Assembly (NCBI GenBank): GCA_964344855.1
Contig: CAYFOV010000009.1
Coordinates: forward strand, 28,235 to 92,234
Length of the DNA: 64,000 nucleotides
Reading direction: 5' to 3'
Origin: an uncultured Candidatus Nemicrothrix sp.
Lineage (GTDB): Bacteria > Actinomycetota > Acidimicrobiia > Acidimicrobiales > MedAcidi-G1
Notes under the pieces: model-generated
Database searches by the model: none
Told to the model about the DNA's origin: nothing
The model's input: only the letters and a program-made list of their open reading frames with translations
In this document: positions 671-41,040 of the stretch, one piece after another
Layout: each line of letters begins with the position of its first letter
Numbering within the stretch: the first letter of the stretch is position 1
Position numbers and translations under genes: made by a program

Positions 671-1143
671 TGGCGTCGGGGGTGCTGTCCCTCAGGGTGA
701 ACGGCCGGGTCAGGCGGGTGCCCAGGTCCGACAACAGGACGCTGCTGGAGGTGCTGCGCCAGGACCTGGCCATGGTGGGCACCAAGCACGGCTGTGACCT
801 GGGGGAGTGCGGGGCCTGCACGGTCCTCCTGGACGGCAGGCCGGTGCTGGCCTGCCTGGTGCTGGCCGTCCAGGTGGGGGATCGCAGCGTCACGACCATC
901 GAGGGCATGGCCCGGGACGGCAGGCCCCACCCCCTCCAGGTGGCCTTCGCCGAGAATGGCGCGTCCCAGTGCGGCTACTGCACCCCGGCCATGCTGCTGG
1001 CATCCCTGGCCCTGCTGGACGAGGCCCCGGCCCCGGCCCCGGACGACATCAGGCGAGCCCTGGCAGGAAACCTCTGCCGCTGCACCGGCTACGGCAAGAT
1101 CATCGAGGCGATCGGGTCGGCCGCCGAAGGGGCCCGGGGCTGA
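670..1143 (+). CDS. hcrC: (2Fe-2S)-binding small subunit of a molybdenum hydroxylase; 4-hydroxybenzoyl-CoA reductase gamma-like
   Basis: Plant-type and second [2Fe-2S] motifs are present (CDLGECGACTVLLDG; QCGYCTPAML; CRCTGY). About 157 aa. ATGA overlap with the upstream gene and TGATG overlap with the large subunit. The small-large-medium order matches hcrCAB. Confidence 0.75.
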   Translation: MASGVLSLRVNGRVRRVPRSDNRTLLEVLRQDLAMVGTKHGCDLGECGACTVLLDGRPVLACLVLAVQVGDRSVTTIEGMARDGRPHPLQVAFAENGASQCGYCTPAMLLASLALLDEAPAPAPDDIRRALAGNLCRCTGYGKIIEAIGSAAEGARG

Positions 1144-5769: not shown

Positions 5770-6870
5770 ATGGAACAGGTGAGCCACGACCTCGACCCGG
5801 CAAGGGAGTTCACAGAGATCCTCTACGAGCACCGGCCGGTGTTCGACGCGGAGGGAACCGAGGTGGACGGCCTCCACGTCGTCTGGATCACCCTGGACAA
5901 CCCCCGCCAACTCAACTCGTACACGACGGAGTCGGTGAAGGACCTCATCCTGGCCTTCCGCCGGGCCTCCGTCGACCGGGCGGCGGTGGCCGTGGTGTTC
6001 ACCGGGGTGGGTGACCGGGCCTTCTGCACTGGGGGCAACACCGAGGAGTACTCGGAGTACTACGCCGGTCAGCCCGGTGAGTACCGCCAGTACATGCGGC
6101 TCTTCAACGACATGGTCTCGGCGATCCTGTCCTGCGACAAGCCCGTGATCAACCGGGTCAACGGTATGCGGATCGGCGGTGGCCAGGAGATCGGGATGGC
6201 CTGCGACTTCACCCTGGCTTCCGACCTGGCGCGCTTCGGACAGGCCGGCCCCAAGCACGGATCGGCTCCCGACGGAGGCTCCACCGACTTCCTGCACCTG
6301 TACGTCGGCTGGAGCGAGGCCGTTGCCAGCTGTGCCCTGTGCGAGCCGTGGAGCGCACACCAGGCGGCCCGCCTGGGCCTGGTCAACGAGATCTACCCGG
6401 TGCTCAGGGTGGACGGCCGGTTCGTTCCGAACCCGCTGGTCGTGACCGATCGCTACCTCGACGAGTGGGGCAGGATCATCCACGGCGAGGCCAAGACCGG
6501 TGAGGAGCTGGAGGCCGGCAAGGCGCTCCTGAAGTCAGGGACCGTCGACTTCGAGCTGCTCGACAGGGGAGTCGACGCGGTCGTAACCAAACTGCTCCAC
6601 ACGATGCCCGACTGCACACAGAAGACCATCGAGTCGCTCAGGAAGAAGAAGTTGGAGCACTGGGACCAGAACCGCGAGACCAACCGCGCCTGGCTGTCGC
6701 TGAACATGATGACCGAGGCCCGGGCCGGCTTCCAGGCCTTCCACCGGGGCGACCGGGAGGTGGGACGCGAGGTCGACTTCGTCGACCTCCGGCGGCGCCT
6801 TGCCGCGGGGGAGCGCTGGGGGGAGGACCTGGTGAGGGCGGTCTCGCCCCAGCACAGGCAGGACAAGTGA
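5770..6870 (+). CDS. oah: Long crotonase-family protein; 6-oxocyclohex-1-ene-1-carbonyl-CoA hydrolase-like (ring-cleaving Oah/BamA type)
   Basis: 366 aa crotonase fold (VVFTGVGDRAFCTGGN, INRVNGMRIGGGQEIGMACDF) with the long C-terminal extension typical of Oah. Flanked by had and dch. Confidence 0.7.
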   Translation: MEQVSHDLDPAREFTEILYEHRPVFDAEGTEVDGLHVVWITLDNPRQLNSYTTESVKDLILAFRRASVDRAAVAVVFTGVGDRAFCTGGNTEEYSEYYAGQPGEYRQYMRLFNDMVSAILSCDKPVINRVNGMRIGGGQEIGMACDFTLASDLARFGQAGPKHGSAPDGGSTDFLHLYVGWSEAVASCALCEPWSAHQAARLGLVNEIYPVLRVDGRFVPNPLVVTDRYLDEWGRIIHGEAKTGEELEAGKALLKSGTVDFELLDRGVDAVVTKLLHTMPDCTQKTIESLRKKKLEHWDQNRETNRAWLSLNMMTEARAGFQAFHRGDREVGREVDFVDLRRRLAAGERWGEDLVRAVSPQHRQDK

Positions 6871-7631
6871 GCGTGGGCCTCGTCCGCCACGAGGTCTCGC
6901 GGGGGGGTGCCGTCCACACGGTCACCCTCGACGCTCCGAGGGGGAACGTGGTCGACATCGCCATGTGCGGGCAGTTGCGGCCTGCGATCGCGGCTGCGGC
7001 GTCCTCGGAGGAGGCCAGGGTCCTGGTGCTCAGGGGGGCCGGGTCCGACTTCTGCTTCGGGGCCAGCGTCGCCGAGCACCTGCCGGAGGTGGCCCCACGG
7101 ATGCTGGAGGCCTTCGGCGGCGTCATCCGGGACCTCGTGGGCTTTCCCCTTCCGACTCTGGCCGCCGTGCAGGGCAGGTGCCTGGGGGGAGGCCTGGAGC
7201 TGGCGCTGGCGTGCGGGATCGTGGTCGCCGAGGAGGGGGCGGTGCTGGGGAGCCCCGAGATCCGGCTCGGGGTGCTGGCCCCCGCGGCTGCCGCCATGCT
7301 GCCGCGGAGGGCGGCCGAGGAGGTGCTCCTCACAGGGCGCGACCTCTCCGCGGCCGAGGCCGGGGCGCTCGGCATCGTCAGCCGGGTTGTCCCCGACGGT
7401 GGCCTGGACGCCGCCGTGGACGGGTACGTCGACGAGCACTTCGTACCCAGGTCGGCCAGCTCGCTGCGCCTGGCGACCGGCCTGGTGAGGAGGCTGAACG
7501 GGCGCAGCCTCGAGGAGAGGCTGGCCGAGGCCGAGCGCACCTACGTCGAGGACCTGCTCGCCACCCACGACGGCGTCGAGGGGATCCGGGCCTTCGTGGA
7601 GAAGCGGCCGCCGGAGTGGCGGAACCGCTGA
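6867..7631 (+). CDS. dch: Enoyl-CoA hydratase family; cyclohexa-1,5-diene-1-carbonyl-CoA hydratase-like
   Basis: 254 aa crotonase (LRGAGSDFCFGASV, GRCLGGGLELALAC, GIRAFVEKRPPEW). GTGA overlap with the oah stop. Confidence 0.65.
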   Translation: MSVGLVRHEVSRGGAVHTVTLDAPRGNVVDIAMCGQLRPAIAAAASSEEARVLVLRGAGSDFCFGASVAEHLPEVAPRMLEAFGGVIRDLVGFPLPTLAAVQGRCLGGGLELALACGIVVAEEGAVLGSPEIRLGVLAPAAAAMLPRRAAEEVLLTGRDLSAAEAGALGIVSRVVPDGGLDAAVDGYVDEHFVPRSASSLRLATGLVRRLNGRSLEERLAEAERTYVEDLLATHDGVEGIRAFVEKRPPEWRNR

Positions 7632-7938: not shown

Positions 7939-8763
7939 CTAGCCGACCGTGGCCGTGGCCGTCCCGCCGGCCCCGATCTTCTCCAGGCGCCGGCGCCCCA
8001 GGATCGCGCAGCCGAGGGCGTGGACGTGCTGGACCATCCCGGCGTCGGGGATGTTCACCTCCGAGTCCAGCATCTCGGCGACCAGCCTCCCCATGGTCTC
8101 GAACCGGAGGATCCCGCCGATGAGGGTGAACTCGGGCTCCGCCCGGACCCGCTTCATGAGCTGGACCGAACGGCCCGTCAGCGACTCGATGGCACCCTGC
8201 ATGATGTCGGCCGGGGCGGTTCCGAGGGAGAGGTGGTTGATCACCTCGGACTCGGCGAACACGGCGCACACCCCGGAGATGGGCACCGAGCCCCTGGAGG
8301 TCGTCATGAGTGGGCCGATCTCCCCGGTGGTGTACCCCATGTAGCGGGCGGTCTTCTCGAGGAACGCCCCCGTGCCGGCCGCGCACTTGTCGTTCAGCCT
8401 GAACGAGAGCACCCTGGCGGCGTCGTCCACCCGGCTGGCCTTCATGGTCTGGCCGCCCACGTCCAGGATGGTGCGTGTGCCCGGGAAGAGGTGCCTGGCA
8501 CCGTGGGCGCAGGCGGTCAGGTCCGTCACGTGCAGGTCCTTGAAGTCGACCTGGTGGCGGCCGGCACCCGTGGCTATCACGTACGAGACGTCACCCTCGT
8601 CGAGGGAGGCGTCGTCCAGGGCCATCTCGTAGACGGTCCGGGCCACCTCCCTGAGCCGGAAGCCCGTCGGGGCCATCGCCCTGCCCAGGACCGTCCCGTC
8701 CTCGGCCTGGATGACCGCCTTGGTGTAGGTGGATCCGACGTCCACCCCGGCGGTGCTGATCAC
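7939..8763 (-). CDS. bzdQ: BadF/BadG/BcrA/BcrD-type ATPase subunit of benzoyl-CoA reductase (bzd-type; Q assigned by gene order only)
   Basis: [16 protein letters not shown]-binding N-terminus. Cluster-bridging Cys motifs [11 protein letters not shown] and [11 protein letters not shown]. About 274 aa. The GTG start overlaps the upstream stop (GTGA at 8760-8763). Confidence 0.7.
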
Positions 8764-9587
8764 GACACCACCCCGACCCCGCCGGCGGCCGGCGCCCTCC
8801 CGGCCATCACGTTGTCGAGGGCGAACAGGGCGGCACCCAGGGCCCCCATGTAGTGGCAGTCGTCGCTGATGTTGAGCGGCCTGCCGAGCCTGTCGCCGAG
8901 GGCCCTGACCATGCCCACGTTCCGGGAGACGCCCCCCGTGAAGGTGACCTCGTCCTCGATCCCCACGCGGCGCATGAGGGCCACGGAACGTGAGGCGATG
9001 GAGGTGTGCACCCCCCAGAGGATGTCCTCGATCCGCTTGCCCTTGCCGATCCACGCCAGCACCTCGGACTCGGCGAAGACCGTGCACGTGGTGCTGATCT
9101 TGACGGGCTTGGTGCTCTCCAGGGAGACCGGTCCGAGCCGGTCGAGGGGGATGTCCAGGGCGGAGGCCGCAGCGCCGAGGAAGCGGCCGGTCCCGGCAGC
9201 GCACTTGTCGTTCATGCAGAAGTCCACGATCTCGCCGTCGGCGCTGACGGAGATGGCCTTGGTGTCCTGGCCCCCCATGTCCACGACGGTCCGGGTGCCG
9301 GGGAAGAGGTGGACGGCGCCGCGGCCGTGGCAGCTGATCTCGGTCACCTGGCTGTTGCCGAACGTGACCCGGAACCGCCCATACCCGGTCCCCACGACGT
9401 ACTCCACCTCCTCCTCGTCGATGCCGCCCTGCCTGAGGGCCTCGACGTAGGAGGCCTCGGCCGCCTGGATCACGTTCGCACCGGTGTCCATGAGCGAACG
9501 GCCGACGATCCGGCGCGCCTCGTCGACGACCACGGCCTTGGTCTGGGTCGAGCCGACGTCTACGCCTGCTGCGTACGCCATCGCCAC
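8760..9587 (-). CDS. bzdP: BadF/BadG/BcrA/BcrD-type ATPase subunit of benzoyl-CoA reductase (bzd-type; P assigned by gene order only)
   Basis: [25 protein letters not shown] and [10 protein letters not shown] motifs. 275 aa. Lies 5 nt downstream of the bzdO-like gene. Confidence 0.7.
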
Positions 9588-9591
9588 CTCC

Positions 9592-10896
9592 TCACCCGGG
9601 AGCCCCGGCGAGGGCCTGCTGGCGGCGCGAGGCCAGGCCCTCGAAGAAGGCGTCGATCCGGTTCTTCATCTGCGCCTCGGAGACGACCCGCCGGTCCATC
9701 ATGTCGGACTCGATGAACAGGCTGGGGATGCCGACCTTCTCCGTGAGGTGCCGCCTGCCGTCGGCCAGGCCGGTCGACACCGTGCGGCAGCTCTTGATCG
9801 GGTGGTAGATGACGCCGTCGGCGTCGAACTCGGCGATCATCTCCTCGAGGACGTCGCCCTGGTGGAACATGGAGTCCATGGCGTCGCGGACCGAGACCAG
9901 CATCCCCTCGGCCAGGCTCGCCAGCGGGTCTCCCAGGTCGTACTCGAAGCCCCGGTTGGTTCCGCCCGAGGCGAACCAGAGGTAGGTGGAGTTGACGAAG
10001 GTGGCGTCCCACTCGCTGAACAGCTCGTTGAACCGGCGGAAGATCGGGTAGCAGGGGACACCCACGAAGAGCAGCCGGTACACCTCCTCTGTGGTCTGGC
10101 CGATCCCGTTTCGGGCCTTGTACTCCATCTCCTCGACCAGCCGCTCGAAGTAGGCGGACCCCTCGGCGGTCCCCCTGAAGCCATTGGCGACGCCGAGGAA
10201 GATCGTCCCGTCGGTCACGGCGTTGAATGGCGAGGGCCTGGCGCAGTTCAACTCCAGCACCTGGTTCCAGCAGCGGCTCATGGTGTTGGCGTGCCCCAGC
10301 ACCTCGCGGAACCGGTCCACGTCGAAGGGGATGCCGGTGACCTCCTCGCAGAGCCCTATGAGCTCGCGCAGCTGCACCTCCACGTAGCGGCGGTCGGCCT
10401 CGAAGTCATCGTCCCCCCTCCAGGTCTGCCCTCCGCCCTGGCGCGTACCCGGCACGTCGATGGTGAAGACGGGCACCCCGTGCATTCGCTCCCAGATCTC
10501 GGCCCACTTGATGTAGGTGTTGCAGGCGTTCGTCAGCACCACGACTCCCGGTGGCGGGATCCGGCCCATCGGGTGCTGGCCGCCCCTGAGCTGGACGGCC
10601 ACGTCCGCTTTCACGTAGCCGCAGATGTCGGGGGAGTAGCCGTAGTCCTCAGCCTCCTCCAGGTACTCGTGGGCGACCCGGCGGACGGCCGTCTGCAGCG
10701 AGTTGATCTCGGGGAACACGACCGGGAGGTCGAAGGTCTTGAGGATCTCGTTGGTGCTGCCCATCACGAACACGTAGGCAGCGGGCCCGCCCTCGGCGGC
10801 GACCCGGTCCAGGTCCGTGAACCAGTCGCGGAACATGGCGGCGCCCTCGTGGTTGCCCCTGCCGACCAGGCTTCCGTCTCGGGCTTCAGTTGGCAT
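9592..10896 (-). CDS. bzdO: Benzoyl-CoA reductase / 2-hydroxyacyl-CoA dehydratase family catalytic subunit (BcrB/BzdO-like)
   Basis: 434 aa of the BcrB/HgdA-type family ([24 protein letters not shown].., [20 protein letters not shown]). AGGAGG lies 6 nt upstream of ATG 10896. Confidence 0.7.
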
Positions 10897-10993
10897 GGCA
10901 GCCTCCTGCCTGCTCGCGCCCGCCGGCTGCCCCGAGGCACTGCTGCGCCCTGGTAGCCGAACGGGAGGACGAACACGGCTCCCGCATGTAGGC

Positions 10994-11098
10994 CCCTGTG
11001 CGATGAGTCCCCGTGCGATGAGTCCCCGTTCGATGAGTCCCCGTGCGAACAGTCCTGGTTCGATGACTTCCCATGCGATGGGCCCTCATGCGAACAGC
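10994..11098. repeat. 15-bp tandem repeat, about 7 units (plus-strand consensus CCCCGTGCGATGAGT), in the bzdN-bzdO spacer
   Basis: Direct reading shows units at 10994, 11009, 11024, 11039, 11054, 11069 and 11084. The three central units are near-identical and the outer ones are degenerate. The last unit contains the bzdN stop codon. Confidence 0.85.
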
Positions 11099-12282
11099 AG
11101 GTGCTCGACGAAGGTCTCGACCTGGAGCTCCAGCTGGCTGAACGAGGTCATGTTCTCCTCGAACTCGCTCACGAAGTAGGCCACGCCCTCCTCGTCGAGG
11201 GCGTGGGTGTATGCCACCTGCTCCTCCAGGCCGGGTTCGCACATCTTGGCGGCGGCCAGGATTGCTGCGTCCGCCCTGGCCTCTCTGATCCGGTCCAGGA
11301 GCATCTTCTCCTTGGGCTTGCGCAGGTCGTGTTGCACCGGGCTGTAGGACGAGCGCTCGATGTAGGCCTCGGCCAGGTTGGTGAGGGGGTCGCCGGCCGT
11401 GGGGACGTCCTCGGTCAGCCACCTCAGGCCGATCAGGAGGTCGTCGTCCACGACGTAGGAGGCCCGTCCGAGCATGCGTACCAGGTCGAACGGCGGCTGC
11501 TCGCAGAACCCGCCCTCGAACACGATCCGGATGCGGTCCTCGGGCCTCCGCCGGCGCCGGCGGACCTGGGGCAGCAGCGTGGCAAGGAGCTGGTTGTGCT
11601 CCTCCCGGGGGATCATCCCGGCCAGGGCCACCAGCGCGAAGGCGTCCTCGGCGTCGATCAGCCATGGGGTCTCGCGCTTGATGTCGTAGAGCTCCCGGAG
11701 GAGCCGCCTGTTCTCGTTGAACACGCGGATCGAGGAGCGCAGGTCGTCGTCGCCGACCTCCGTACCGGCCACCTCCTCGACGACCCTGCGCATCCGGTCG
11801 TACTCGTGTCGCAGGTACTCGAGGCTGCCCGCCGAGTTGGGGTTCTGTGGCAGGTAGAGGATCTGGCACGGGTAGTCGAAGTTGCGGCCCCAGATGGCGG
11901 CCAGGTTCCGGGCCGCGTCACAGATCGGGTGGGAGACGAACAGGTCCAGGCGGACCTGTTCGCTGAGCGCCAACTCCAGGGAGGTCTTGAGGATCGAGCA
12001 GAGGTAGGAGCCGAAGTGCGAGTCGGCCACGTTGGGCTCGACGGGCGCTCCCCTCACCTTGAACGGGAGCATCCCGGCTGCGTGGACGATCTCCTCCGGG
12101 AAGGCCACCTGGAAGTGGCCGGCGACCTTCCCGCCGGCGTCCCGCCAGCGCGCCACGGTCTCGAACTCGGGGGACTCGACCATTTCCCGGCACTCGAGCA
12201 GGGCGTCGTCGAGGGGCTTGTCGCGCCATTCGGGGAAGACCAGGGTGGTGGGGGCCGCTGCGGGGGCGGTCGCGGTGCTCAT
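11086..12282 (-). CDS. bzdN: Benzoyl-CoA reductase / 2-hydroxyacyl-CoA dehydratase family subunit (BcrC/BadD/BzdN-like)
   Basis: 398 aa (GHFQVAFPEEIVHAAGMLPFKV, ICDAARN, AKMCEPG). ATG 12282 overlaps the TetR stop (ATGA). First gene of the four-gene reductase operon. Confidence 0.7.
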   Translation of the reverse strand: MSTATAPAAAPTTLVFPEWRDKPLDDALLECREMVESPEFETVARWRDAGGKVAGHFQVAFPEEIVHAAGMLPFKVRGAPVEPNVADSHFGSYLCSILKTSLELALSEQVRLDLFVSHPICDAARNLAAIWGRNFDYPCQILYLPQNPNSAGSLEYLRHEYDRMRRVVEEVAGTEVGDDDLRSSIRVFNENRRLLRELYDIKRETPWLIDAEDAFALVALAGMIPREEHNQLLATLLPQVRRRRRRPEDRIRIVFEGGFCEQPPFDLVRMLGRASYVVDDDLLIGLRWLTEDVPTAGDPLTNLAEAYIERSSYSPVQHDLRKPKEKMLLDRIREARADAAILAAAKMCEPGLEEQVAYTHALDEEGVAYFVSEFEENMTSFSQLELQVETFVEHLLFA

Positions 12283-12923
12283 CGGGAGGCCACACCGTCG
12301 GAGCCGGCCCCGTCGAAGAAGAGGTCCATGACCTGTTCCAGTTGGGCGTCGGTCCCCTGGAGGGTGTCGGCGGCATAGCGCCCTATCACCACCTCGACCA
12401 GCGCCACGAACGACCACGAGAGGATCCGGGGGTCCCGGTCCACGACCTCTCCTGCGGCTATCCCGTCACGGAGGATCTCCTCGATGAGCTCGGGCAGCGC
12501 ATGCTGGTATGCGCTGATGAGGTTCTCGCGTTCCTCTCCCCTGAAGGTGTTGATGTCCCGGCGCACCAGGTGGGTCAGCTCGCGCTCCTCGAAGGGAAGT
12601 TCCAGGTAGTCCCTCGTCAGTTGGGCCAGGCGCTCCCTGGCCGTTCCCTCCATGGCCACGGCCCGGCTGAAGAGCTCGTGCTTGTTCTGGAAGTCGGCGA
12701 GCATCATGGAGGTGTAGAGGTCCTCCTTGCTGGCGAAGTGGTGGTAGAGGCCCCCCTTGGTGACCTCGGCCGCCCGGGCGATCATGTCGGTGGTGACGTC
12801 GGCGTAGCTGCGGGTGACGAAGAGGCCCCTGGCAGCCTCCAGGATCCTGGCCGATGTGGCCTCGGACCTGCTCGGAGGATCGGCTGGCATGTTGGCCCTC
12901 GTGTCTCTTGTTGGTGACGTCAT
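12279..12923 (-). CDS. TetR/AcrR family transcriptional regulator
   Basis: N-terminal HTH (ILEAARGLFVTRSYADVTTDMIARAAEVTKGGLYHHFASKEDLY). Its stop overlaps the bzdN start. ATG 12890 is an alternative start. Confidence 0.8.
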   Translation of the reverse strand: MTSPTRDTRANMPADPPSRSEATSARILEAARGLFVTRSYADVTTDMIARAAEVTKGGLYHHFASKEDLYTSMMLADFQNKHELFSRAVAMEGTARERLAQLTRDYLELPFEERELTHLVRRDINTFRGEERENLISAYQHALPELIEEILRDGIAAGEVVDRDPRILSWSFVALVEVVIGRYAADTLQGTDAQLEQVMDLFFDGAGSDGVASR

Positions 12924-14291: not shown

Positions 14292-15251
14292 TCAGCCGGC
14301 CGTAGCCATGCAGGCGTCGTGCAGGTCGGCGCTGTCCATGTCCTGGGCCAGCCGGTCGACCACCGCCACCGCCTCCTCCCCGGTCAGGTCCTCTCGCTCT
14401 GCGAGGGCGCGGACGGCCTCCCTGAGCTCCCGCGGTGCGAGGCCCGGGACGAAGCTGAGGTACACCCAGGCGAAGGCGGGACCCACCCCCGGGACGCTTC
14501 CCTTCTTCTCCCTCACGGCCACCTCCCACATGAAGGTGTCGGGCCAGCCCTCGTCTGGCATTCCCCGGTAGTCCTCCCGGACCTTGAGGTAGGCACCCTC
14601 CTCGATCCGTTCCCTGTTCTGGGCCACTGAGCACCTGATGCTGCACGTGAGGAACCGGTCGGGCCTCTTCACCCACGATCCGCATTGACAGCAGCGGCCG
14701 GCCACGTCGTTCCCGGGTAGGCCGGCCGCCTCTCGGAGCCAGCCGACGGGCTCCTCGCACGCCATCCTGTCGCGCGTCGCCTCGTCCAGGGCGGCGTTGC
14801 GCAGGGCGGCCTGGCGTACCTCGACCCACGGATCGTCGGCCAGGCGGTCCAAGAGGTCGGGCGGGCAGGTCTCGTGGAGGGCCAGGATGCGGCGGGCGGT
14901 CGGGTTGGGATGGCCTGTCCACCACGGAAGCTCCCTCCGGTCGGTCGTCCACAGCCGCTCCTCGAGGTCGAGAAGGCCGCCGAAGGGCCTGAACGGGTCG
15001 CGCCTCTGGCGTTCCGGGCGTCCGCGGGTGGCCATCGAGTTGGACCACATGTCACGGACGATCGAGCGGGCCACCTCAACGGTGCGCAGGTACTCCTCGA
15101 CCTCGGGGACCGGGTGCGGGCGGGGCGGCCCCGGTGGGCCGTCGGGGCCGTGGAATGGGAGGGGGTACGAGGTGGTCTCGTCTTCCTCCACGAGGTCGTC
15201 GTCGCCGGCCGCGTCTGGCCCGTGGAAGGGGTCGGTGTTGGTGGTTGCCAT
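14292..15251 (-). CDS. Hypothetical protein with LRV/HEAT-like repeats and a Cys-rich zinc-ribbon-like segment
   Basis: 319 aa high-GC3 ORF. Has HPNPTARRILALHETCPPDLLDRLADDPWVEVRQAALRN repeats and CCQCGSW..CSIRC. No confident family assignment. Confidence 0.45.
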   Translation of the reverse strand: MATTNTDPFHGPDAAGDDDLVEEDETTSYPLPFHGPDGPPGPPRPHPVPEVEEYLRTVEVARSIVRDMWSNSMATRGRPERQRRDPFRPFGGLLDLEERLWTTDRRELPWWTGHPNPTARRILALHETCPPDLLDRLADDPWVEVRQAALRNAALDEATRDRMACEEPVGWLREAAGLPGNDVAGRCCQCGSWVKRPDRFLTCSIRCSVAQNRERIEEGAYLKVREDYRGMPDEGWPDTFMWEVAVREKKGSVPGVGPAFAWVYLSFVPGLAPRELREAVRALAEREDLTGEEAVAVVDRLAQDMDSADLHDACMATAG

Positions 15252-15376
15252 GGTGTGCTCCTCATCGAACCTGGCGGAACCACCGTGCCCTTCTCGGGTC
15301 GGTTGGCGGATCGTCGCAGGGCCAGGTCCCTCGGATCCTCTTGATGAGACACCCCGAACGTACCACCGGGCTGTGA

Positions 15377-25394: not shown

Positions 25395-26960
25395 TCAGAA
25401 CCCTGCCGCCTCGCCCACCACGGAGCGCGGGTCCGCGGCTCCCCTGAGGCCGCCGTCGACCACCTCGATGCAGTGGGCGTGGCCGAAGTTGGCATTCCCG
25501 ACCCGGGCCGCGTGGCCGCGCTCCACCAGGCCCGGCACCCACGCCTGTGGTGCGTGCTCCTCCACGACCACCTCGACGGCCCCGCCCGCCTCCCACGTGC
25601 GAAAGGCGCTTCCTCCCCCGGCCAGGATCCAGCGCCCCCCGCCGACAACGTGCCCGGGGTCGGAGCCGTCGACCAGCAGCCTCACCAGCATCTGCAGCAC
25701 GACCTGCGGCTGGGCGTCCGCGCCCATGGTCCCCAGCACCGCCCGCAGGCCGCCGTCGGGCCGGGTCACCAACGCCGGGGCGAGGGTGTGGGGCGGCCTC
25801 CTGCCGGGTCCGTAGCGGGCAGGGTGCCCCGGCTCGACGCTGAAACCCGTGCCCCTGTTGTGGAGGAACACGCCCAGCCCGGGAAGGGTCAGGTGGCTAC
25901 CGAAGCCGTCGGCGTTGGACTGGATAAGCGAGACCCCCATGCCCTCGCCGTCCACCACGCACATGTAGATGGTGTCGCCCTCGTGCCAGGAATCGCCGAG
26001 TAGCGCCGCCGAGTCGGGGTTGACGGCGGCCCGGCGTGGGCCCAGCCTGGCCTCGTCCAGCAGGGCCGGGCCGTCGGCCCCCTCGTGCAGCACCGTCGGC
26101 CTGTCGTGGCCGGCCCGTCGGGCCGCCTCGACCAGCAGGTGGGCGCGCAGTGGGTCCTCCTCGGGGGGCAGGTCCAGTCCCTCTGCTATCAGGGCGGCCG
26201 AGAGGGACAGGTAGCCCTGTGAGTTGGGCGGTACTGTCCAGACCCGGTGCCCCCAGAGGTCGGCAGCCAGCGGCTCCACCCAGTTGGTCCCGGGCCGTGA
26301 CAGGTCCCCGGGCGTGTACTCCCCGGCGCCCACCTCCAGCAGGGCCTCACCGAACCGGCCGGCATACACCGCGTCGCGGCCGCCCCGACCGAAGTCGGTG
26401 AGGACCGAAGCCACCCCAGGCCGCCTGACCAGGTCGCCCGCCTTCGCCACGGTGGCGAAGTCCTCGGCTCCCTGGACGCCGGTCACCGCCCCTACGGCGT
26501 CGGCCAGCAGCGGTGACGCAGCGAAGCCGTCGTGCGCGATACGCGCGGCCGGCTCCATCAGGTCGGCCAGCGGGACCGAGCCGAAGCGCCGGTGCAGGGC
26601 CCACCACCCGTCGATGCACCCAGGAACCGGCACCGACCTCACGTCGCCACGGTGGGGCATGTCCGCCAGCCCGTCCGCGGCCAGGCTCTCCGGGTCGGCG
26701 CCCGAGCCGGCCCTGCCCGAGGCGTTCAGGCAGGCCGGTGCCCCTGTTCCGTCGTGTACCAGGGCGAAGAGGTCGCCACCGATGCCGCACATGTGCTGGG
26801 CCGTGACCGCCAGCACGGCATTGGCGGCGATGGCGGCATCGACGGCGTTGCCGCCGTCGGCCAGGACGGCCACCCCTGCCCGGGTGGCCAGGGCGTCCAC
26901 GGTGCACACCATCGCCTCGCCCGCCAGCCGCAGCTGGTCTCCCCAGGGAGCCATGTCCAC
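25395..26960 (-). CDS. ggt: Gamma-glutamyltransferase family protein
   Basis: GGNAVDAAIAANAVLAV..CGIGGD, and GDTIYMCVVD, which holds the autoprocessing Thr region. About 520 aa. ATG 26954 is an alternative to GTG 26960. Confidence 0.8.
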   Translation of the reverse strand: MDMAPWGDQLRLAGEAMVCTVDALATRAGVAVLADGGNAVDAAIAANAVLAVTAQHMCGIGGDLFALVHDGTGAPACLNASGRAGSGADPESLAADGLADMPHRGDVRSVPVPGCIDGWWALHRRFGSVPLADLMEPAARIAHDGFAASPLLADAVGAVTGVQGAEDFATVAKAGDLVRRPGVASVLTDFGRGGRDAVYAGRFGEALLEVGAGEYTPGDLSRPGTNWVEPLAADLWGHRVWTVPPNSQGYLSLSAALIAEGLDLPPEEDPLRAHLLVEAARRAGHDRPTVLHEGADGPALLDEARLGPRRAAVNPDSAALLGDSWHEGDTIYMCVVDGEGMGVSLIQSNADGFGSHLTLPGLGVFLHNRGTGFSVEPGHPARYGPGRRPPHTLAPALVTRPDGGLRAVLGTMGADAQPQVVLQMLVRLLVDGSDPGHVVGGGRWILAGGGSAFRTWEAGGAVEVVVEEHAPQAWVPGLVERGHAARVGNANFGHAHCIEVVDGGLRGAADPRSVVGEAAGF

Positions 26961-27118
26961 CGGGGCAGCATCGCACAGCCCGCCGCCGGCCGGTGGCCCG
27001 TCCCTGCTGCCCGGCCTCGCCGTCGTGGTCGCCTCCCTGTGATACTCGGTGGAGACGGGGGGGCGGTGCCGGCGACAGGGACCGGCGTTGACGACAGGGA
27101 GCAGCGGGGGAGGCAGCC

Positions 27119-28291
27119 ATGGGCGACGAACAGGTACGGGAGGCCGTGGCCGGCCTGGAGGGGTACGCCTTCGACGAGATGCCCTGGACGGTCCCGCCTC
27201 CCCTCTCCCAGAGCAGGGTGGCCGTGGTCACGACCGCAGGGCTGAGGCCCGACGGGGGCGCCGACTGGAACCCCGGCGACCAGTCCTTCACCCTCCTGCC
27301 CGCCGACCGGCGCGACCTGGTCCTGGCCCACTTCAGCCCCAACTTCGACAGGACCGGATGGCTCGTGGACCCCAACGTGGTCTTCCCACTCGACCGCCTG
27401 GACGAGCTGGCCGCCGAGGGGGTGATCGGGTCGGTGGCCGACGTGCACGTCTCGTTCATGGGGGCCCAGATCGACCACACCCTCGAGACCATCCGGTTGG
27501 ACACGGGTCCGGCCGCCGCAAGGGCGCTGCTCGACGACGGGGTCGACGTGGCCCTGCTTACCCCCGTCTGACCGCTGTGCACGCGTACCGTGGGTACGCT
27601 CGCATCGGTCCTGGAGGAGGCCGGGATCGCCACCGTGGCGCTGTCCCTGATCCGCCAGCAGGTGGAGACGACGAGGCCGCCGCGGGCACTCCACTGCCAT
27701 TTCCCGCTGGGCCGTCCGCTGGGGAGGCCCGCCGACCCGGCCTTCCAGACGAGGGTGCTGCGGAGCGCCCTGGACCTGCTCGGCGAACAGGGCGGGCCGG
27801 TGCTGGTCGACTTCGACGAGGTGGTGGAGGACGACTCGGCCGCCCCGCTGGCCTGTGCCATCCCTCCTGCCGATGCGGGCGACGTCCACCCCGCCGAGGC
27901 AGAGGCCGGCGGCCTCCTGCCGGCCTGGCGGCGCAGCCTCGAGGAGCACGGCCGTACAACGGTTGGAAAGGTGGTGCCGGCCGAGGAGGTTCCTGCGGTG
28001 GTCGGGCTCTTCGCCCGGATCGCCGACGGGGAGGACTGGAAGGAGGTGGGCCTCCCCGGAGACCCCACCAAGGTGGCCGCGGACGTGCGCAACTTCTACG
28101 AGGAGGCAGCCCTGTCCCTATCCGACGGGGTCCCCGGAGCGCGCCAGGCCGAGTCCTGGTTCGTGGACCACACCGCCGCCGGTGACGTCGTGCAGAGGGC
28201 CCGCCTCGAGATGAAGGACCAGGGGGCGGGCTTCTACTTCTGGTACTACCTGCTGCCCCTCAGCCAGCACCACGACCCGCGGGAAGGCTGA
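27119..28291 (+). CDS. Glycine/sarcosine/betaine/D-proline reductase selenoprotein B (GrdB/PrdB) family protein, with in-frame TGA 27569-27571 read as selenocysteine (U-x-x-C)
   Basis: ORFs 27119..27571 and 27590..28291 are in the same frame and only this TGA separates them. The junction reads LLTPV-U-PLCTRTVGTLASVLEEAGIATV. GRDB-like blocks lie upstream (VAVVTTAGL, DPNVVFPLDRLDELAAEG). A hairpin starts 11 nt downstream of the TGA. Confidence 0.7.
27583..27599 (+). promoter_or_regulatory. SECIS-like hairpin GCGUACC-GUG-GGUACGC downstream of UGA 27569
   Basis: Perfect 7-bp stem starting 11 nt after the UGA, with a GU-containing apical loop. A further GUGC/GCAU lower stem is possible across an internal loop. 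Confidence 0.5.
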
Positions 28292-28401
28292 GGCGGGGAC
28301 AACCCTGCACCAGCCGAAGCGGCTGCCGTAGGGGCCGGCCGCGGTGCAGAGCGGGCGCGGGGTGACCGGTACCCTTGCCTGACCCCAGGCAGGAGGAGCG
28401 C

Positions 28402-29559
28402 ATGGCCACCGACCCGGAACTGGCCGACCAGATAGTCGGCACCGTACGCAGCTGGGTTGAGCGCGACGTCATCCCCAACGTGGCCCGCTTCGAGGCTGCC
28501 GACGAGTTCCCGCAGGCCATGTTCGCCCAGATGTGCGGCTTCGGGCTGTTCGGGGCGACCATCCACGAGGAGTACGGGGGCCTGGGCCTGGACGTGACCA
28601 CCTACACGCGGATCATCGAGGAGCTCTCCCGCGGCTACATGTCCCTGGCCGGAATCCTCAACACCCACAAGATCGCGGCCACCATGATCGCCCGCTTCGG
28701 CACTGACGAACAGCGCAGCAGCCTCCTGCCGCGTATGTGTGACGGCTCCTTCCGGGCTGCCTTCTCGCTCTCGGAGCCCGACGCTGGAAGCGACACCGGC
28801 GCCCTCCGCTGCCGGGCCGTCCGCGACGGCGATGAGTGGGTGGTCAACGGCACCAAGATGTGGGTCACCAACGGCATGAGGGCCTCGCTGGTCATGCTGC
28901 TGGCCCGCACCCCCGATGACCGGATCACCTGCTTCCTCGTGGAGAAGGAGCCGGGCGAGGAGTACGGCGGCATCACCGTGTCGAAGAAGATCGACAAGCT
29001 GGGCTACCGGGGCCTCGAGACCGTGGAGATGTCCTACGTGGACCACCGGATCCCTGCCGACAGCGTGCTCGGCGGCGAGGAGGGCATCGGACACGGGAGG
29101 GGCTACGCCCTCTCGGCCCTGGAGCTGGGGCGGATCAACGTGGCGGCCAGGGCAGTGGGCGTGGCCCAGGCCGCCTTCGAGGCGGCCATGGCGTACGCCC
29201 AGCAGCGTGAGGCCTTCGGCCGGCCGATCGTGCAGCACCAGGCGGTCTCCTTCCGGCTGGCTGAGATGGCCACCAGGCTGCAGGCCGCCAGGCTCATGAC
29301 CTACGACGCCGCCCGCCTGGCGGACCTGGGCGAGCGCGTCGACCTGGAGGCGGGCATGGCCAAGCTGTTCGCCTCGGAGGCCGCGTTCGAGATTGCCGCC
29401 GACGCAATGCGGATCCACGGTGGCAACGGCTATACAACCGAGTACCCGGTGGAGCGCTACCTTCGGGACGCCCCCCTCATGATCATCGGCGAGGGCACCA
29501 GCGAGATCCAGAAGATGGTGATCGCACGCAAGCTGGTGGAGCGCCACCCGGTGGAGTGA
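28402..29559 (+). CDS. Acyl-CoA dehydrogenase
   Basis: ACAD blocks ([50 protein letters not shown]). AGGAGGAG lies upstream of ATG 28402. Confidence 0.85.
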
Positions 29560-29578: not shown

Positions 29579-31873
29579 GTGAACACGGGAGCGGACATGC
29601 CACAGAACGTGACGGTCCCCGGCCAGGGGGGCACATCCATACTCGGCAACGCCGTCCTGCGGCGCGAGGACGACGGCCTCCTGCGGGGCCGGGGCCGCTA
29701 CGTGGGCAACGTCGAGCTGCCCGGGGCCCTGCACGCCCACTTCGTGCGCTCGACCGTCGCCCACGGCGAGGTCCTCGGCGTCGACGTAGACGAGGCACGG
29801 ACCATGCCGGGGGTGGTGGCCGTCTACACCGCAGCCGACCTCGGCCTCGGGGACCGCCCGCCCCCCATGGGCTTCTACCCCGGCGAGATGGCCAGGCCGT
29901 ACCTGGCCCGCGACCGGGTCCGCTTCGTGGGTGAGCCGGTCGCCGTGGTCGTGGCCGAGACCGCCTACCAGGCCGCCGACGCCGCCGAGGCCGTGTGGGC
30001 CGACATCGACCCCCTGCCCGCCGTGGTCGACCTGGACGACGCCCTCGCCGGTGGGACCCTCCTCTTCCCGGACCTGGGCCACAACCTGAGCTGGGAGCTG
30101 CCGGCCGGCGACCGGGTCGACTTCTCCGGGTGCGAGGCGGTCATCCAGGCCGAGATCGTGAACACCAGGGTGGCCCCGGTCTCCATAGAGCCCCGCGTCG
30201 CCGCAGCCAGGTTCGAGGACGGCCGGCTGACGTGTTGGGCCAGTTCCCAGGGCGGCCACGACTTCAGGAACGACGTCGCCAAGGCCCTGGAGTTGGATGC
30301 GTCAGACGTGCGCGTCCTGGTCGGTGACATAGGCGGGGGCTTCGGCGCCAAGGGCATGGTCTCCGAGGAGGAGATCGTCGTCGCCCAGCTGGCGCGGCTG
30401 CTGGAGCGTCCTGTCAGGTGGGCCGAGAGCCGGACCGAGAACCTGACCGGCTACGTGCACGGCCGTGCCCAGCGGCAGAGGGTGACCATGGGCGGCACCC
30501 GCGACGGCCGGATCACCGCCTACCGGCTGGAGGTGGACCAGGACTGCGGTGCCTACCCCAAGTGGGGCCCGTTCCTGCCCGAGTTCACGAGGCAACTGGC
30601 CTGCGGGGTCTACGACATTGCCGAGGTGGAGTTCTCGTCCCGGTCCGTCGCCACCACCACCGCCCCCACCTGCGCCTACCGGGGGGCCGGGCGCCCCGAG
30701 GCCACGGCGGCCATCGAGAGGGCGGTCGACATGTTCGCCGCCGAGATCGGCATGGACCCGGTGGAGGTGCGGCGCCGGAACCTGATCCCGCCGGAGGCCT
30801 TCCCCTTCACCACCCGCACGGGAACCTCCTACGACTCCGGCGAGTACGAGGCGGCCCTCGACGCCGCCCTGGAGGCCGCCGACTACCCGGCCCTGCGGGC
30901 CGAGCAGCAGGGTCGCCGGGATGCCGCTGAGCGCGTCCAGACGGGCATAGGCGTGAGCACCTACGTCGAGATAACCGGCTTCGGGGGCAGCGAGTACGGC
31001 GAGGTCAGGCTGCGGCCCGACGGCACGGTGCTGGCCACGACCGGGTCGACCCCGATCGGCACGGGCCACGTCACCACCTGGGCGATGCTCGTGGCCGACC
31101 GCCTGGGGATGCCCATGGAGCGGGTCGAGGTGCTCCACGGTGACACCGACGCCGTGCCGTCCGGCGAGACGACCGGCGGATCCCGGTCGGTGCAGCTGGC
31201 CGGCTCGGCCATGGCCGACGCATCCGAGAAGCTGGTCGAGGTAGCCCGCCAGGCAGCTGCCGACCAGCTGGAGGCCGCCGTGGCCGACGTGGTGCTGGAC
31301 CGCGGTGCCGGCGCCTTCCACGTGGCCGGAACGCCGGCCCTGTCGCGCTCGTGGGCGGACCTGGCCACCACAGCCGACGAGCCGCTGACGGGGCTCTCCG
31401 ACTTCGAACAGGTCGGGGCAACCTTCCCCTTCGGCACCCACATAGCCGTGGTCGACGTCGACACCGAGACGGGCCAAGTGGCCATCAGGCGGATCGTGGC
31501 GGTTGATGACGCCGGCACCCTCGTGAACCCCCTGCTGGCCGCCGGCCAGATCCACGGCGGCCTGGCCCAGGGGGTGGCCCAGGCCCTCATGGAGGAGTTC
31601 CGCTACGACGAGGACGGCAACCCCCAGACCACCAACCTGGCCGACTACACGGCGGTGTCGGCCATGGAGGTGCCCAGCTACGAGAGGTCCTTCACCCAGA
31701 CCCCGTCCCCACGCAACCCCCTGGGGGCCAAGGGCATAGGCGAGTCGGGCAGCATCGGTTCCACCGCGGCCGTGCAGAGTGCGGTGGTCGACGCCGTCTC
31801 GCACCTGGGAATCGGGCACATTGACATGCCGCTGACCCCTGAGAGGGTCTGGCAGGCCATCAGGTCCGCCTGA
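29579..31873 (+). CDS. Xanthine dehydrogenase family molybdopterin-binding large subunit, form II CoxL-like (AYRGAGR), with no adjacent small or medium subunit
   Basis: 764 aa ([19 protein letters not shown].., [20 protein letters not shown] at 30674-30694). ATG 29597 is an alternative start. Confidence 0.75.
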
Positions 31874-38560: not shown

Positions 38561-39592
38561 TCAGGCCAGGGTGCCCTGGGGCAGGCCGTCCACGACCTGG
38601 TCCAGGTACTCGGACAGGCCCCAGCCGACGTGGCCGTCGCAGGTGAACCTGGTCAGGCCCTCGGTTATGCGTGTCAGCAGGTCGTCCCCCTCGGGTGTGG
38701 TGCGCCGGTTCCGCAGCGGTATGAGCGACCTGACCTCGCCCGACACCTCGTAGGTGCGCTCGTCGGTGGTCACGGTGGCCACCAGGCCCGTCTGGTACCA
38801 GGCGTCGTCCCAGGCGGTGTCGATCGAGACCCCGGTTATCTCGTGGTACCGGTCGCCGTGCAGCACCATGCCGCCCGGTCGGGCGTTCACGCCGTCGCGG
38901 CTGACCAGCGAGACGACCATGGCGAAGTCCTCGTCGAACACCAGCGGCAGCCACCTGTACCAGGCCACCGCCTGCCAGTACCGGGGCCCCCACGACTTGT
39001 CCCGCAGGCCCAGGCCCTCCACCTCGAAGCGCTTCCCGTCGACCTGGATGTGCCCCGTGGCCGCCATGTGCTGCTCGTAGTGGGCCTTGGCGAACGACCG
39101 GGCCGCCTCCTGGCGGGGCTCCTCGCCTGTCACTGCGTCGACCGGGCGGCCCCCCAGCATCGGCGAGATGCCCCTGTAGGCCAGGTCCACGCTGCACGGG
39201 ACGATCGGGTTGGTGCTGAAGGCCAGCTTCGGCTCGGCCATGTCCGCCGGCCTTTCCATCAGGCACAGCGACCCGTCGTAGCGCACCCGGAGGTGCCTGA
39301 AGGGCTCCTCCACGTCGAAGCGCATCCCGCCGGCGTCGAACGCCTCGTTGGTCGAGATGGTTGGCCGCTGGAACATGAATCCGACCCGGCCGTCGGGCAG
39401 GTAGACGCAGCACGACATCTCGGCGTAGCCCTCGTTCACCCGGTTTCCGAGGCGGAACCAACCCGCCACCAGGGAGTCGTGGTCCACGACGTTGAAGTAC
39501 ATGGACTCGTTGAAGTTCACTGCGGCGTCGGGCTCGTGGTTGTACTCGTCGCCGGGTTCGAGCACGAGCCGGATGCCTTCCTCACCTGCCAT
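38561..39592 (-). CDS. Conserved hypothetical protein (beta-rich; no confident family)
   Basis: 343 aa high-GC3 ORF from ATG 39592 (MAGEEGIRLVLEPGDEYNHEPDAAVNFNESMYFNVVD..). The upstream part of the 510-aa track ORF is Pro/Arg-rich and looks non-coding. Confidence 0.55.
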   Translation of the reverse strand: MAGEEGIRLVLEPGDEYNHEPDAAVNFNESMYFNVVDHDSLVAGWFRLGNRVNEGYAEMSCCVYLPDGRVGFMFQRPTISTNEAFDAGGMRFDVEEPFRHLRVRYDGSLCLMERPADMAEPKLAFSTNPIVPCSVDLAYRGISPMLGGRPVDAVTGEEPRQEAARSFAKAHYEQHMAATGHIQVDGKRFEVEGLGLRDKSWGPRYWQAVAWYRWLPLVFDEDFAMVVSLVSRDGVNARPGGMVLHGDRYHEITGVSIDTAWDDAWYQTGLVATVTTDERTYEVSGEVRSLIPLRNRRTTPEGDDLLTRITEGLTRFTCDGHVGWGLSEYLDQVVDGLPQGTLA

Positions 39593-39611
39593 GGGCCTCA
39601 CCTGCCATGGG
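39580..39611. repeat. Perfect 16-bp tandem duplication CCTCACCTGCCATGGG x2 spanning the start codon of the 38561..39592 gene
   Basis: Read directly. The second copy creates an out-of-frame upstream ATG (39608, minus strand). That ATG opens an 8-codon uORF, MAGEAHGR*, which overlaps the main ATG. Confidence 0.85.
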
Positions 39612-39666
39612 GGCGAGTGTGGCACGCCGCTGGCGGCGGTGGCGGGCCGGGTGGGAGGCTGGGTCC

Positions 39667-41040
39667 ATGCGCAGGGTCGCGGTGCTGGTCGTCCCGCTCC
39701 TCCTGTGGGGCTGTGCGGGAGGGGATGCTCCAACTGCCGGCGGGGCACCGACCACCGCGCCGCCCGCCACGTCGGGCACACCGTCCGGGGATGCTCCGAC
39801 TGTGGGCGGGGCACCGACCACCGCGCCGCCCGCCACGGCGGGCACGCCGTCCGGGGATGCTCCGACCGCGGGCGAGGCCCCGGCCAGCGCCCAGACGGCC
39901 GCGGGCACGCCGTTCGACGCCGGAGCGGAGGCCCCTGCCACCACGGCAGCAACCGCGGTGGCCCCGGCTGCAGCCGCGGAGCCGCCGCCCACCGCCCCCA
40001 CGGTGCCGGCCGCCACGACGGAATCCCAGCCGGCCGCCACGACGGTCCCGGTCCCGGTTCCGACAACCGACCCCACGACCACCACGGCGCCACTGGTGAC
40101 GGGGGCCGCTGCCGCCTTCTCGCCGGACCACCTGATGGTGGGCCCCGGCTCCTTCTTCGAGTCGGCCGACGACCCCCGCCTCGTGGCGGCCCCGGAGGCG
40201 ACCTGGCTGGAACCCGACGACGTGGTGCTGGGGGTCCTCCAGGGCGGTGAGGCGGTGGCGTTCCCCGTCGACCAGATGGCCTACCACCACATCGCCAACA
40301 CCAGCGTCGCCGGCGAGCCCTGGCTGGTCACCTACTGAGTGGTCTGCTCCAGCGGGGTCGGTTTCGACCCCGTCATCGACGGCACCAGGTACACCTTCGA
40401 CGTGGCCGGCCTCTACAACGGCCTGTTCGTGATGAGCGACCGCCAGACCGGCTCTGTGTGGACCCACTACGACGGCACGATCCTGACCGGGCCGCTGGCA
40501 GGGACGGGGGCGGCCCTCACGGTCAGGCCGCTCCACCACCGGCGCTGGTCAGGCTGGCTGGCCGACCACCCGGAGACCAGCGTGCTGGCCCGGGAGGAGC
40601 GCTACGAGGACCGCTACTGGGAGACGACTCCGGGCCAGCCGGGCCTGGGCCGTGAGTTCCTGGACACGCTCGTCTCGCTCGACACCCGCCTGCCCGAGAA
40701 CGAGCTGGTGCTCGGCGTCGACACCGGCACGGGCTCCAGGGCCTACCGCCTTGCGGGTGCCGACGGGCCCACCGTGGTGGCCGACGTACTGGGCGGCCTC
40801 CCGGTCATAGCCGTTCTGGACCCCGACTCTGTGTTCGGGATCGCCTTCGAGGCGACCGTCGACGGCGAGGTGCGGTCCTTCCAGCCGACCGAGGGCGGCC
40901 TCGTGGACGACCTGGGCGGCAGCTGGGGCCTGGACGGATCCGGAACCGGCGGCCGCAGCCTAAGGTTCGTGACCAGCTTCGTGACCGAGTGGTACGGCTG
41001 GGCCGCCTACCACCCCGACACCGGGATCTGGCCTGGCTGA
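39667..41040 (+). CDS. Lipoprotein with a Pro/Thr/Ala-rich linker and a DUF3179 domain; in-frame TGA 40336-40338 read as selenocysteine (U-V-V-C in place of the family CxxC)
   Basis: ORFs 39607..40338 and 40339..41040 are contiguous in one frame. The junction reads GEPWLVTY-U-VVCSSGVGFDP. DUF3179-like blocks lie on both sides of the TGA. Signal peptide and lipobox MRRVAVLVVPLLLWGC. A hairpin with a GUUU loop starts 15 nt downstream. Confidence 0.7.
39721..39880 (+). repeat. 66-bp in-frame tandem repeat (about 2.4 copies) encoding GDAPT.GGAPTTAPPAT.GTPS in the lipoprotein linker
   Basis: Units at 39721-39786 and 39787-39852 differ at only a few positions. A partial third copy follows. Confidence 0.85.
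40353..40372 (+). promoter_or_regulatory. SECIS-like hairpin C-GGGGUCG-GUUU-CGACCCC-G downstream of UGA 40336
   Basis: Perfect 8-bp GC-rich stem with a GUUU apical loop. The loop lies 23 nt after the UGA. Confidence 0.5.

Follow-up and report, generated by a model that had tools for sequence, protein, structure and literature searches.

The window analysed here is a stretch of 64,000 nucleotides (nt) from contig CAYFOV010000009.1 of an uncultured Candidatus Nemicrothrix sp., and the subject of this report is a gene on its forward strand that public annotation and gene callers split into two adjacent "hypothetical protein" entries of 150 and 233 amino acids (aa). The two open reading frames (ORFs) concerned, 27119-27571 and 27590-28291, belong to a single reading frame that runs from the ATG at 27119 to the TGA at 28289-28291 (+), and the sole stop codon within it is the TGA at 27569-27571, as a preliminary description of this DNA had noted. 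When this codon is read through, the coding sequence (27119..28291, +) comprises 390 codons plus the stop, and the peptide around the junction is ...GVDVALLTPV-U-PLCTRTVGTLASVLEEAGIATVAL..., that is U151-P-L-C154, where U denotes selenocysteine (Sec). A Shine-Dalgarno-like sequence, GGGGGAGG, is located at 27106-27113, 5 nt 5′ of the ATG at 27119. No Shine-Dalgarno sequence is found ahead of the GTG at 27590, the putative start of the downstream 233-aa ORF, and this "GTG start" coincides with the loop (27590-27592) of a hairpin described below. Full-length homologues that carry Cys in place of Sec, 380-420 aa in length, align end to end with the read-through product. An AlphaFold2 model of the whole chain, based on a 40-sequence alignment, attains a predicted local distance difference test (pLDDT) score of 94.7 and a predicted template modelling (pTM) score of 0.93 and crosses the junction with high confidence, which suggests that the read-through product is one compact protein. 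Comparison with related sequences confirms that the two "hypothetical" ORFs are one gene of 390 codons, in which the internal UGA is the predicted selenocysteine codon. Very probably, the locus is a single functional gene whose product, a selenoprotein of 390 residues, is a stand-alone relative of the B-type selenoprotein subunits found in Stickland reductases.

The UGA codon at 27569..27571 (+), the first position of the U-P-L-C motif, aligns with a column that holds Cys or Sec in homologues and in PrdB, the B subunit of D-proline reductase, and would be read as Sec151. The preliminary description had recognized a U-x-x-C followed by a family-type segment at this site and had expected Sec or Cys at the aligned position. 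Both points are borne out, the residue being Cys in 32/39 full-length homologues (motif CPxC) as well as in PrdB. In the other 7/39 it is Gly (P0059, P0069, P0085, P0099 and P0115) or Ala (P0118 and P0119), with C154 and the remaining conserved residues kept; these proteins have either lost activity or use some other mechanism. A scan of GTDB, with one genome per species, located 295 loci encoding relatives, and the codon was read in the best 80 of the 295. Here it is TGA in 79/80 and TGT in 1/80, that is, Sec is strongly favoured over Cys among the closest relatives, and in the TGA loci both halves of the protein are conserved. The hosts of these best-scoring loci span at least seven phyla and include Acidimicrobiia, Dehalococcoidia/Chloroflexota, Myxococcota, Acidobacteriota, Candidatus Dormiibacter, Vulcanimicrobiaceae, Hydrogenedentota, and a metagenome-assembled genome (MAG) of the Burkholderiales. 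The same TGA is also present in several assemblies of the source organism. A global reassignment of UGA is ruled out, and any recoding must be local, because TGA terminates 40/45 genes of the window, the PrdB-like gene itself included.

Immediately downstream of the UGA lies an 11-nt spacer (27572..27582, +), which also encodes P152, L153, C154 and the start of T155, followed by a hairpin (27583..27599, +) that resembles a selenocysteine insertion sequence (SECIS). Its seven-base-pair stem is formed by GCGUACC (27583-27589) and GGUACGC (27593-27599), closed by a GUG loop (27590-27592), exactly where the preliminary description had placed it. In a gap-free alignment of 83 genes the spacer is constant in length. 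Its synonymous sites vary freely, with third-position entropies of 1.9-2.0 bits at P152 and L153. The stem is paired in 93% of cells (80 distinct sequences within the 83-gene alignment), and compensatory double changes occur in 4/7 pairs (G-C to U-A, U-A to C-G in 34 sequences, A-U to G-C, and C-G to G-U). This degree of covariation was reached by 0/500 column shuffles, and pairing falls to 21-64% when the 3′ arm is slid by 1-3 columns. G is invariant at the first loop position, and U occupies the second position in at least 90% of the 83 sequences. Constraint is equally visible at the codon level: in 26 genes of the marine clade, conserved four-fold codons between +4 and +11 have a third-position entropy of 0.29 bits, versus 1.72 bits at 134 such codons elsewhere, and the hairpin stretch has the second-lowest entropy of 358 eight-codon windows. 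In 4/4 Cys-type homologues examined the hairpin is absent, with merely 2-4 of the 7 positions able to pair. One of these (L095) encodes the identical R-T-V-G-T peptide, yet the pairing is missing, and the coding sequence as such does not force the structure. These comparisons support the view that the hairpin behaves as a conserved, covarying SECIS, the outcome that a check proposed along with the preliminary description had left to be seen.

A spacing of 11 nt and a requirement for G and U in the loop are known for the SECIS of Escherichia coli fdhF. The present hairpin likewise is a stem-loop inside the coding sequence, begins 11 nt past the UGA and carries G-U on the 5′ flank of its apical loop, but it differs from the fdhF type in its short stem (6-7 base pairs), its loop of 3 nt or 5 nt (GUG or CGUGA) and the lack of an evident bulged U. 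By analogy with fdhF, the elongation factor SelB would bind the hairpin loop together with Sec-tRNA(Sec), and Sec would be inserted at position 151. A promoter and terminator scan of 26800-28500 gave no match.

That the TGA is instead a true stop, as a result of pseudogene formation, sequencing error, or an arrangement of two genes with re-initiation at GTG 27590, agrees with the way in which gene callers and public annotation divide the locus and with the lack of Sec machinery in the sequence available. It is nevertheless scarcely credible. The codon is TGA in each of 79 independent assemblies, one per species, and again in the several assemblies of the source organism, both halves are conserved at the protein level, and the Cys-type homologues are single polypeptides. 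Furthermore, the GTG is a hairpin loop devoid of a ribosome-binding site, the synonymous sites over the hairpin codons are frozen, which an ordinary stop does not require, and the structure model runs through the junction with high confidence. Sequencing error or a pseudogene, and likewise re-initiation in a two-gene arrangement, are effectively refuted by the comparative data.

With regard to family, the read-through protein scores 27.6 bits against the Pfam model GRDB (PF07355; cut-off 22), matching profile positions 223-345 of 347 over aa 29-148, which places it within this superfamily. The NCBIfam equivalog model for PrdB (TIGR04483) aligns with aa 25-222 (profile positions 23-219 of 238) at 109.8 bits and E = 1.4e-31, below its cut-off of 300, and the selenoprotein-B subfamily model TIGR01918 aligns with aa 75-215 (profile positions 273-409) at 39.3 bits, below its cut-off of 65.45. 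The preliminary description's assignment to the GrdB/PrdB family is upheld by the Pfam score and by the extent of the TIGR04483 match, and no NCBIfam model reaches its cut-off on the window protein. Neither Pfam nor NCBIfam matches the last ~170 residues. Among 5.8 billion proteins searched, relatives of two kinds were retrieved: 233-aa fragments that begin after the TGA, are 60-81% identical and stem mostly from marine Acidimicrobiia MAGs and single-cell genomes, and full-length proteins of 380-420 aa that are ~50% identical. The fragments form dozens of clusters, and the family is apparently split routinely by public annotation.

Among the closest known relatives is PrdB, described from Clostridium sticklandii, C. 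difficile and C. sporogenes. When aligned with a set of genuine PrdB sequences (C. sporogenes, C. botulinum, Caldicellulosiruptor, Sporolactobacillus and others), the first ~250 residues of the window protein are 29-33% identical to the named PrdB proteins, and its TGA falls on the first Cys of the PrdB motif G-C-G-T-C-H-R (W or R in two mistranslated entries). The PrdB-like family and genuine PrdB have 30 invariant columns in common. Among these are T38, G41, D84, N86, P90, D92, R93, L94, E96, G101, C154, R156, E166, G169 and T172, and the family-like blocks that had been pointed out beforehand are covered by the invariant columns. Further invariant non-cysteine residues in common with PrdB are H71, D77, R189 and Q210. 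The two proteins share a homologous domain with Sec/Cys-x-x-Cys in the same columns, an E..G..T segment after the motif, and a P-R...P.G...G.P block. They differ in that PrdB is a single domain of ~240 aa, whereas the window protein has 390 aa and a family-specific helical C-terminal domain, possesses two extra invariant cysteines, C193 and C246, and is encoded with no PrdA pyruvoyl subunit, PrdC or proline racemase nearby. The resemblance to GrdB, GrdF and GrdH (glycine, sarcosine and betaine reductases) is more limited. The C-terminal half of the GRDB profile is matched and the UxxC selenocysteine motif is shared, but the N-terminal ~220 residues of GrdB are missing, the window protein has a different layout from the two-half architecture of ~430 aa, and the window holds no grdA, grdC, grdD, grdE or trxA/trxB. 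In the literature, no cryo-electron microscopy structure of PrdB was found, nor anything under the name "PrdB-like".

The PrdB-like catalytic domain extends over aa 25-222 (27191..27784, +), as delimited by TIGR04483. In the structure model it is an alternating beta/alpha domain, in which U151 follows the strand 144-148 and C154 opens the helix 154-167. The codon of C154, the presumed resolving cysteine of the UxxC motif, is located at 27578..27580 (+), and this residue is invariant in the family as well as in genuine PrdB. The two family-specific cysteines are C193 (27695..27697, +), which is invariant in 80/80 Sec-type genes and replaced by Ala or Pro in PrdB, and C246 (27854..27856, +), which is invariant in 40/40 and in 80/80 sequences and stands just N-terminal of the C-terminal domain. 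All four positions, U151, C154, C193 and C246, are invariant in 80/80 TGA-type genes. In the alignment, genuine PrdB ends a few residues beyond the C246 column, which is where the extra domain begins. This domain of ~150 aa (aa 235-390; 27821..28288, +) has no profile match and is mostly helical in the model, with the helical part covering residues 258-376. A phmmer search with the C-terminal domain alone against 1.84 billion cluster representatives gave 164 matches, and among the matches listed the interpretable ones have the same architecture or are fragments thereof. Two apparent fusions, P0256 (1019 aa) and P0350 (405 aa), were rejected; in both, a piece of the domain is embedded in Arg/Pro/Ala-rich nonsense, and they are evidently out-of-frame or chimeric gene calls.

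The gene is flanked by a divergent gamma-glutamyltransferase gene (ggt; 25395-26960, -) and, downstream, by genes for an acyl-CoA dehydrogenase (28375-29559) and for the large subunit of a molybdenum (Mo) hydroxylase (29579-31873, +) that has no medium or small subunit adjoining it. The three neighbours, the lone Mo-hydroxylase subunit included, are those named in the preliminary description. Among ~54 ORFs over the window annotated with Pfam there is neither a Grd or Prd partner nor a sel gene, and proteins of the thioredoxin system (thioredoxin, thioredoxin reductase) are likewise absent. In a genuine prd locus from Caldicellulosiruptor (L096), prdC, prdA (PF09338), a small ORF, prdB and the proline racemase gene are contiguous. 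Searches by phmmer with the PrdA, PrdC, small-ORF and proline racemase proteins of this locus, made against six-frame ORFs of the window and of 95 related loci (1.30 Mb, 7-10 kb around each gene), found none of them; PrdB-like genes alone were matched. The earlier characterization of the gene as an "orphan" therefore stands as regards partners, none being present in the window and no prd partner within 7-10 kb in the 95 loci, but not as regards rarity, for the family is large (295 hits in GTDB, one genome per species) and was published as a predicted selenoprotein in 2005.

It had also been suggested that recurrence of the ggt or acyl-CoA dehydrogenase neighbours be examined in homologues, and this recurrence proved to be confined to one marine clade. 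Clustering of neighbours at 84 loci gave acyl-CoA dehydrogenase as the top cluster, with 23 loci, all from that clade, and at the 57 loci outside it no neighbour recurs in more than 9. The order ggt, PrdB-like gene, acyl-CoA dehydrogenase, Mo-hydroxylase, aminotransferase, CN-hydrolase is kept among relatives of ~77-81% identity, but a relative of 63% identity no longer has it, and neither do the Cys forms. A functional link between ggt or acyl-CoA dehydrogenase and the PrdB-like gene was rejected, since neighbour clustering found no family-wide partner; judged from these gene orders, the recurrence of the two neighbours reflects just the close kinship of one marine clade. Some genomes with Cys-type members hold a second GRDB-like paralogue nearby. 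In L095 a faintly GRDB-like gene of 320 aa (6126-7088, +) lies ~0.9 kb upstream of the Cys-type member, and a Solirubrobacterales contig (L058, near 16369, +) has two full-length CPxC paralogues ~8 kb apart.

The family as such is not new, and the window gene is a fresh member of one that has been catalogued since 2005. The Sargasso Sea selenoproteome survey (Zhang, Fomenko & Gladyshev 2005) lists 42 genes as "Proline reductase (PrdB)" with a UXXC motif, the third most abundant selenoprotein of that dataset, and places the family among the thiol-dependent redox selenoproteins with this motif. The ratio of Sec to Cys forms is given as 42 versus 1 in the Sargasso Sea (2005) and as 235 versus 110 in the Global Ocean Sampling (GOS) data (Zhang & Gladyshev 2008), and a 2021 global marine survey attributes 6.4% of selenoprotein genes to "PrdB". 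One catalogued sequence from the Sargasso Sea, AACY01584242, shares 71% identity with the window protein across 171 aa, the C-terminal domain included. Its protein reads VVLLTPVuPLCTRTVGTLASVLEQSG..., and its DNA carries TGA-CCGCTTTGCAC-GCGTACC-GTG-GGTACGC, with a spacer of the same length and a stem-loop identical to that of the window. In sister sequences from the Sargasso Sea the hairpin begins 11 or 12 nt after the TGA and has other stems, for example GCGCGCC/GGCGCGC and CAGAC/GUCUG. The marine "PrdB" family and the window gene are accordingly one family, with the same UxxC and the same excess of Sec over Cys forms, and nothing essential separates them; the window gene simply has a high GC content (71%) and was recovered from a different metagenome. 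Actinomycetota of marine and fresh waters carry the family in abundance.

The Sargasso "PrdB" set is itself heterogeneous (PMC1088965, supplement file 1, part 8; for example AACY01307988, AACY01464622 and AACY01087932). A short form with u-PVC-HQTVS and FPLGNPCGKP makes up one group, and another consists of low-GC sisters with a related C-terminal domain (RTTVG..., FY.E..., WFW.ET..G). In both groups a hairpin follows the TGA at a distance of 11 or 12 nt, with stems that differ in sequence.

Whether these proteins belong to proline reductase is a separate matter. The window protein would serve a canonical D-proline (or glycine/betaine) reductase as its B subunit if PrdA or GrdE, PrdC, or GrdA/C/D were encoded elsewhere in the genome, of which just 64 kb plus 10 kb are visible. 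PrdB is the best NCBIfam match, JGI labels the Cys homologues "D-proline reductase (dithiol) PrdB", and the selenoproteome surveys file the family as PrdB. This interpretation is nonetheless quite improbable. The protein stays at 109.8 bits against the equivalog cut-off of 300 and at 39.3 against the subfamily cut-off of 65.45, and it has an extra domain of 150 aa and two extra invariant cysteines that are absent from PrdB. The prd genes are contiguous in the genuine locus, and none of the partner genes turned up within 7-10 kb at the 95 related loci, which come from many phyla. The hosts, moreover, belong mostly to lineages that are not known for Stickland fermentation. The accessible parts of the surveys treat the family as proline reductase and contain no mention of the extra domain, the missing PrdA or the extra cysteines. 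In view of this silence, and because no NCBIfam model reaches its cut-off, the name "PrdB" is probably a misnomer for what is a known family.

Several results weigh against reading the window gene as a stand-alone selenoenzyme of this kind. No selA, selB, selD or tRNA-Sec was found in the 64-kb window, in the 10 kb past its end or in the related loci (1.3 Mb), and the window has no tRNA of any kind; Sec decoding by the organism is for this reason an inferred property. The visible genome being limited to 64 kb plus 10 kb, partners may be encoded elsewhere. The predicted fold of the 101-nt stretch 27560-27660 is not exceptional for a sequence of 71% GC (z = -1.46 versus shuffles), and no Rfam model matches the hairpin at either gathering or permissive thresholds. 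Since the stability of the isolated fold is unexceptional, the significance of the hairpin rests on the comparison with related genes. At least 7/39 full-length homologues, those with Gly or Ala at the Sec column, cannot run the catalytic cycle proposed below. Finally, a Foldseek search of the model against the PDB returned no similar structure (best E = 0.015, TM-score at most 0.23), and phmmer and profile searches of the PDB gave nothing relevant, no GrdB or PrdB structure having surfaced. With no Foldseek match at E < 0.001, the structure gave no functional lead.

Evidence on Sec decoding comes from a second gene of the window with an in-frame TGA. This gene (39664-41040, +) belongs to the family DUF3179 and has its TGA at 40336-40338, followed by a hairpin at 40352-40373. 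Its read-through product scores 161.8 bits against Pfam DUF3179 across the TGA, over profile positions 7-292 of 292, and the TGA replaces the first Cys of a CxxC-type motif (...PWLVTY-U-VVC-SSG...). In the predicted fold, 13 nt separate the TGA from the start of the nine-base-pair hairpin CGGGGUCGG/UCGACCCCG, whose loop is GUUU. Gene callers retain just the 233-aa part that follows the TGA. A lipoprotein-like start, MRRVAVLVVPLLLWGC, near 39664 is uncertain and would overlap the minus-strand ORF 38561-40093, of which Pfam DUF7064/DUF7065 matches cover the C-terminal part only. A 2026 review (PMC13188914) includes DUF3179 (UxxC/T) among the predicted selenoprotein families, and the gene at 40336 looks like a second selenoprotein gene of the window. 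The occurrence of this second gene with an in-frame TGA suggests that the organism decodes Sec, and a 2026 preprint describes a complete Sec machinery in Actinomarinales, another order of the same class. In practical terms the outcome for the window is an annotation fix, by which two "hypothetical proteins" become one selenoprotein, and likewise for the DUF3179 gene at 40336.

With respect to function, the Sec-then-Cys cycle of PrdB, in which a nucleophile is followed by a resolving thiol, is presumably common to the window protein. The background to this cycle is reportedly found in work by Kabisch et al. from 1999. By analogy with PrdB and GrdB, the selenolate of Sec151 would attack a small bound substrate and break a C-N bond, or a comparable C-X bond, adjacent to a carboxyl or carbonyl group. 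Cys154 would then resolve the selenium adduct to give a selenenylsulfide, and re-reduction would be accomplished by a cellular dithiol such as thioredoxin, possibly through a putative relay formed by C193 and C246. The C-terminal domain probably supplies a substrate-binding or partner function. The substrate is probably not D-proline, because no PrdA- or GrdE-type pyruvoyl subunit is encoded beside the gene and the C-terminal domain is private to the family. For about twenty years the ocean inventories have counted this family as "proline reductase PrdB" and among the most abundant selenoproteins. There is about an even chance that it is in fact a self-contained selenoenzyme with no pyruvoyl partner, with its own helical domain and a second invariant cysteine pair, rather than a subunit of proline reductase. 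In a speculative version of this scheme, the selenolate would directly displace a good leaving group from a betaine, a sulfonium osmolyte or another onium compound, which would explain why no Schiff-base-forming subunit is required. Finding the substrate would fill a real gap in selenium biology.

The main rival to such substrate chemistry is that the selenoprotein has a general role in thiol/selenol redox chemistry, for example in reducing disulfides, peroxides, sulfoxides or metalloids, or acts as a redox sensor, with a thioredoxin-like UxxC and C193/C246 as a second pair. In the model the UxxC motif sits at a strand-helix junction, as in thioredoxin-fold centres, the protein has four invariant Cys/Sec residues, and no partner subunit is present to activate a substrate. 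The 2005 survey, as mentioned, grouped the family with thiol-dependent redox selenoproteins, and the hosts (Acidimicrobiia, Chloroflexota, Myxococcota and others), sampled from ocean, lake and soil, seem for the most part to live as aerobic heterotrophs in settings where oxidative-stress selenoproteins are common. The fold, however, is that of PrdB/GrdB and not thioredoxin-like, and the invariants shared with PrdB include H71, D77, D84, N86, D92, R93, R156, E166, R189 and Q210. Such invariant non-cysteine residues suggest a conserved small-molecule binding site and not a bare redox motif. The preference for Sec over Cys (79/80) is also what is seen in the nucleophile-dependent chemistry of GrdB and PrdB, although it is suggestive only. 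A general redox role is on balance unlikely.

Other features of the window lie apart from the PrdB-like gene. A second Mo-hydroxylase large-subunit gene is located at 807-4579 (+) and is followed by a gene for a flavin adenine dinucleotide (FAD)-binding medium subunit. An S-adenosylmethionine (SAM) riboswitch (RF00162, 54.7 bits) is found at 15259-15350 (-), upstream of a 319-aa ORF (14292-15251, -) for which Pfam gave no match at E <= 1e-5. At 8760-12417 (-) there is a cluster of the 2-hydroxyacyl-CoA dehydratase type, with a BcrAD_BadFG activator ATPase and two HGD-D subunits. The 2-hydroxyacyl-CoA dehydratases are oxygen-sensitive radical enzymes, and the cluster here adjoins a TetR regulator and a hemerythrin gene, in what is apparently an aerobic heterotroph.

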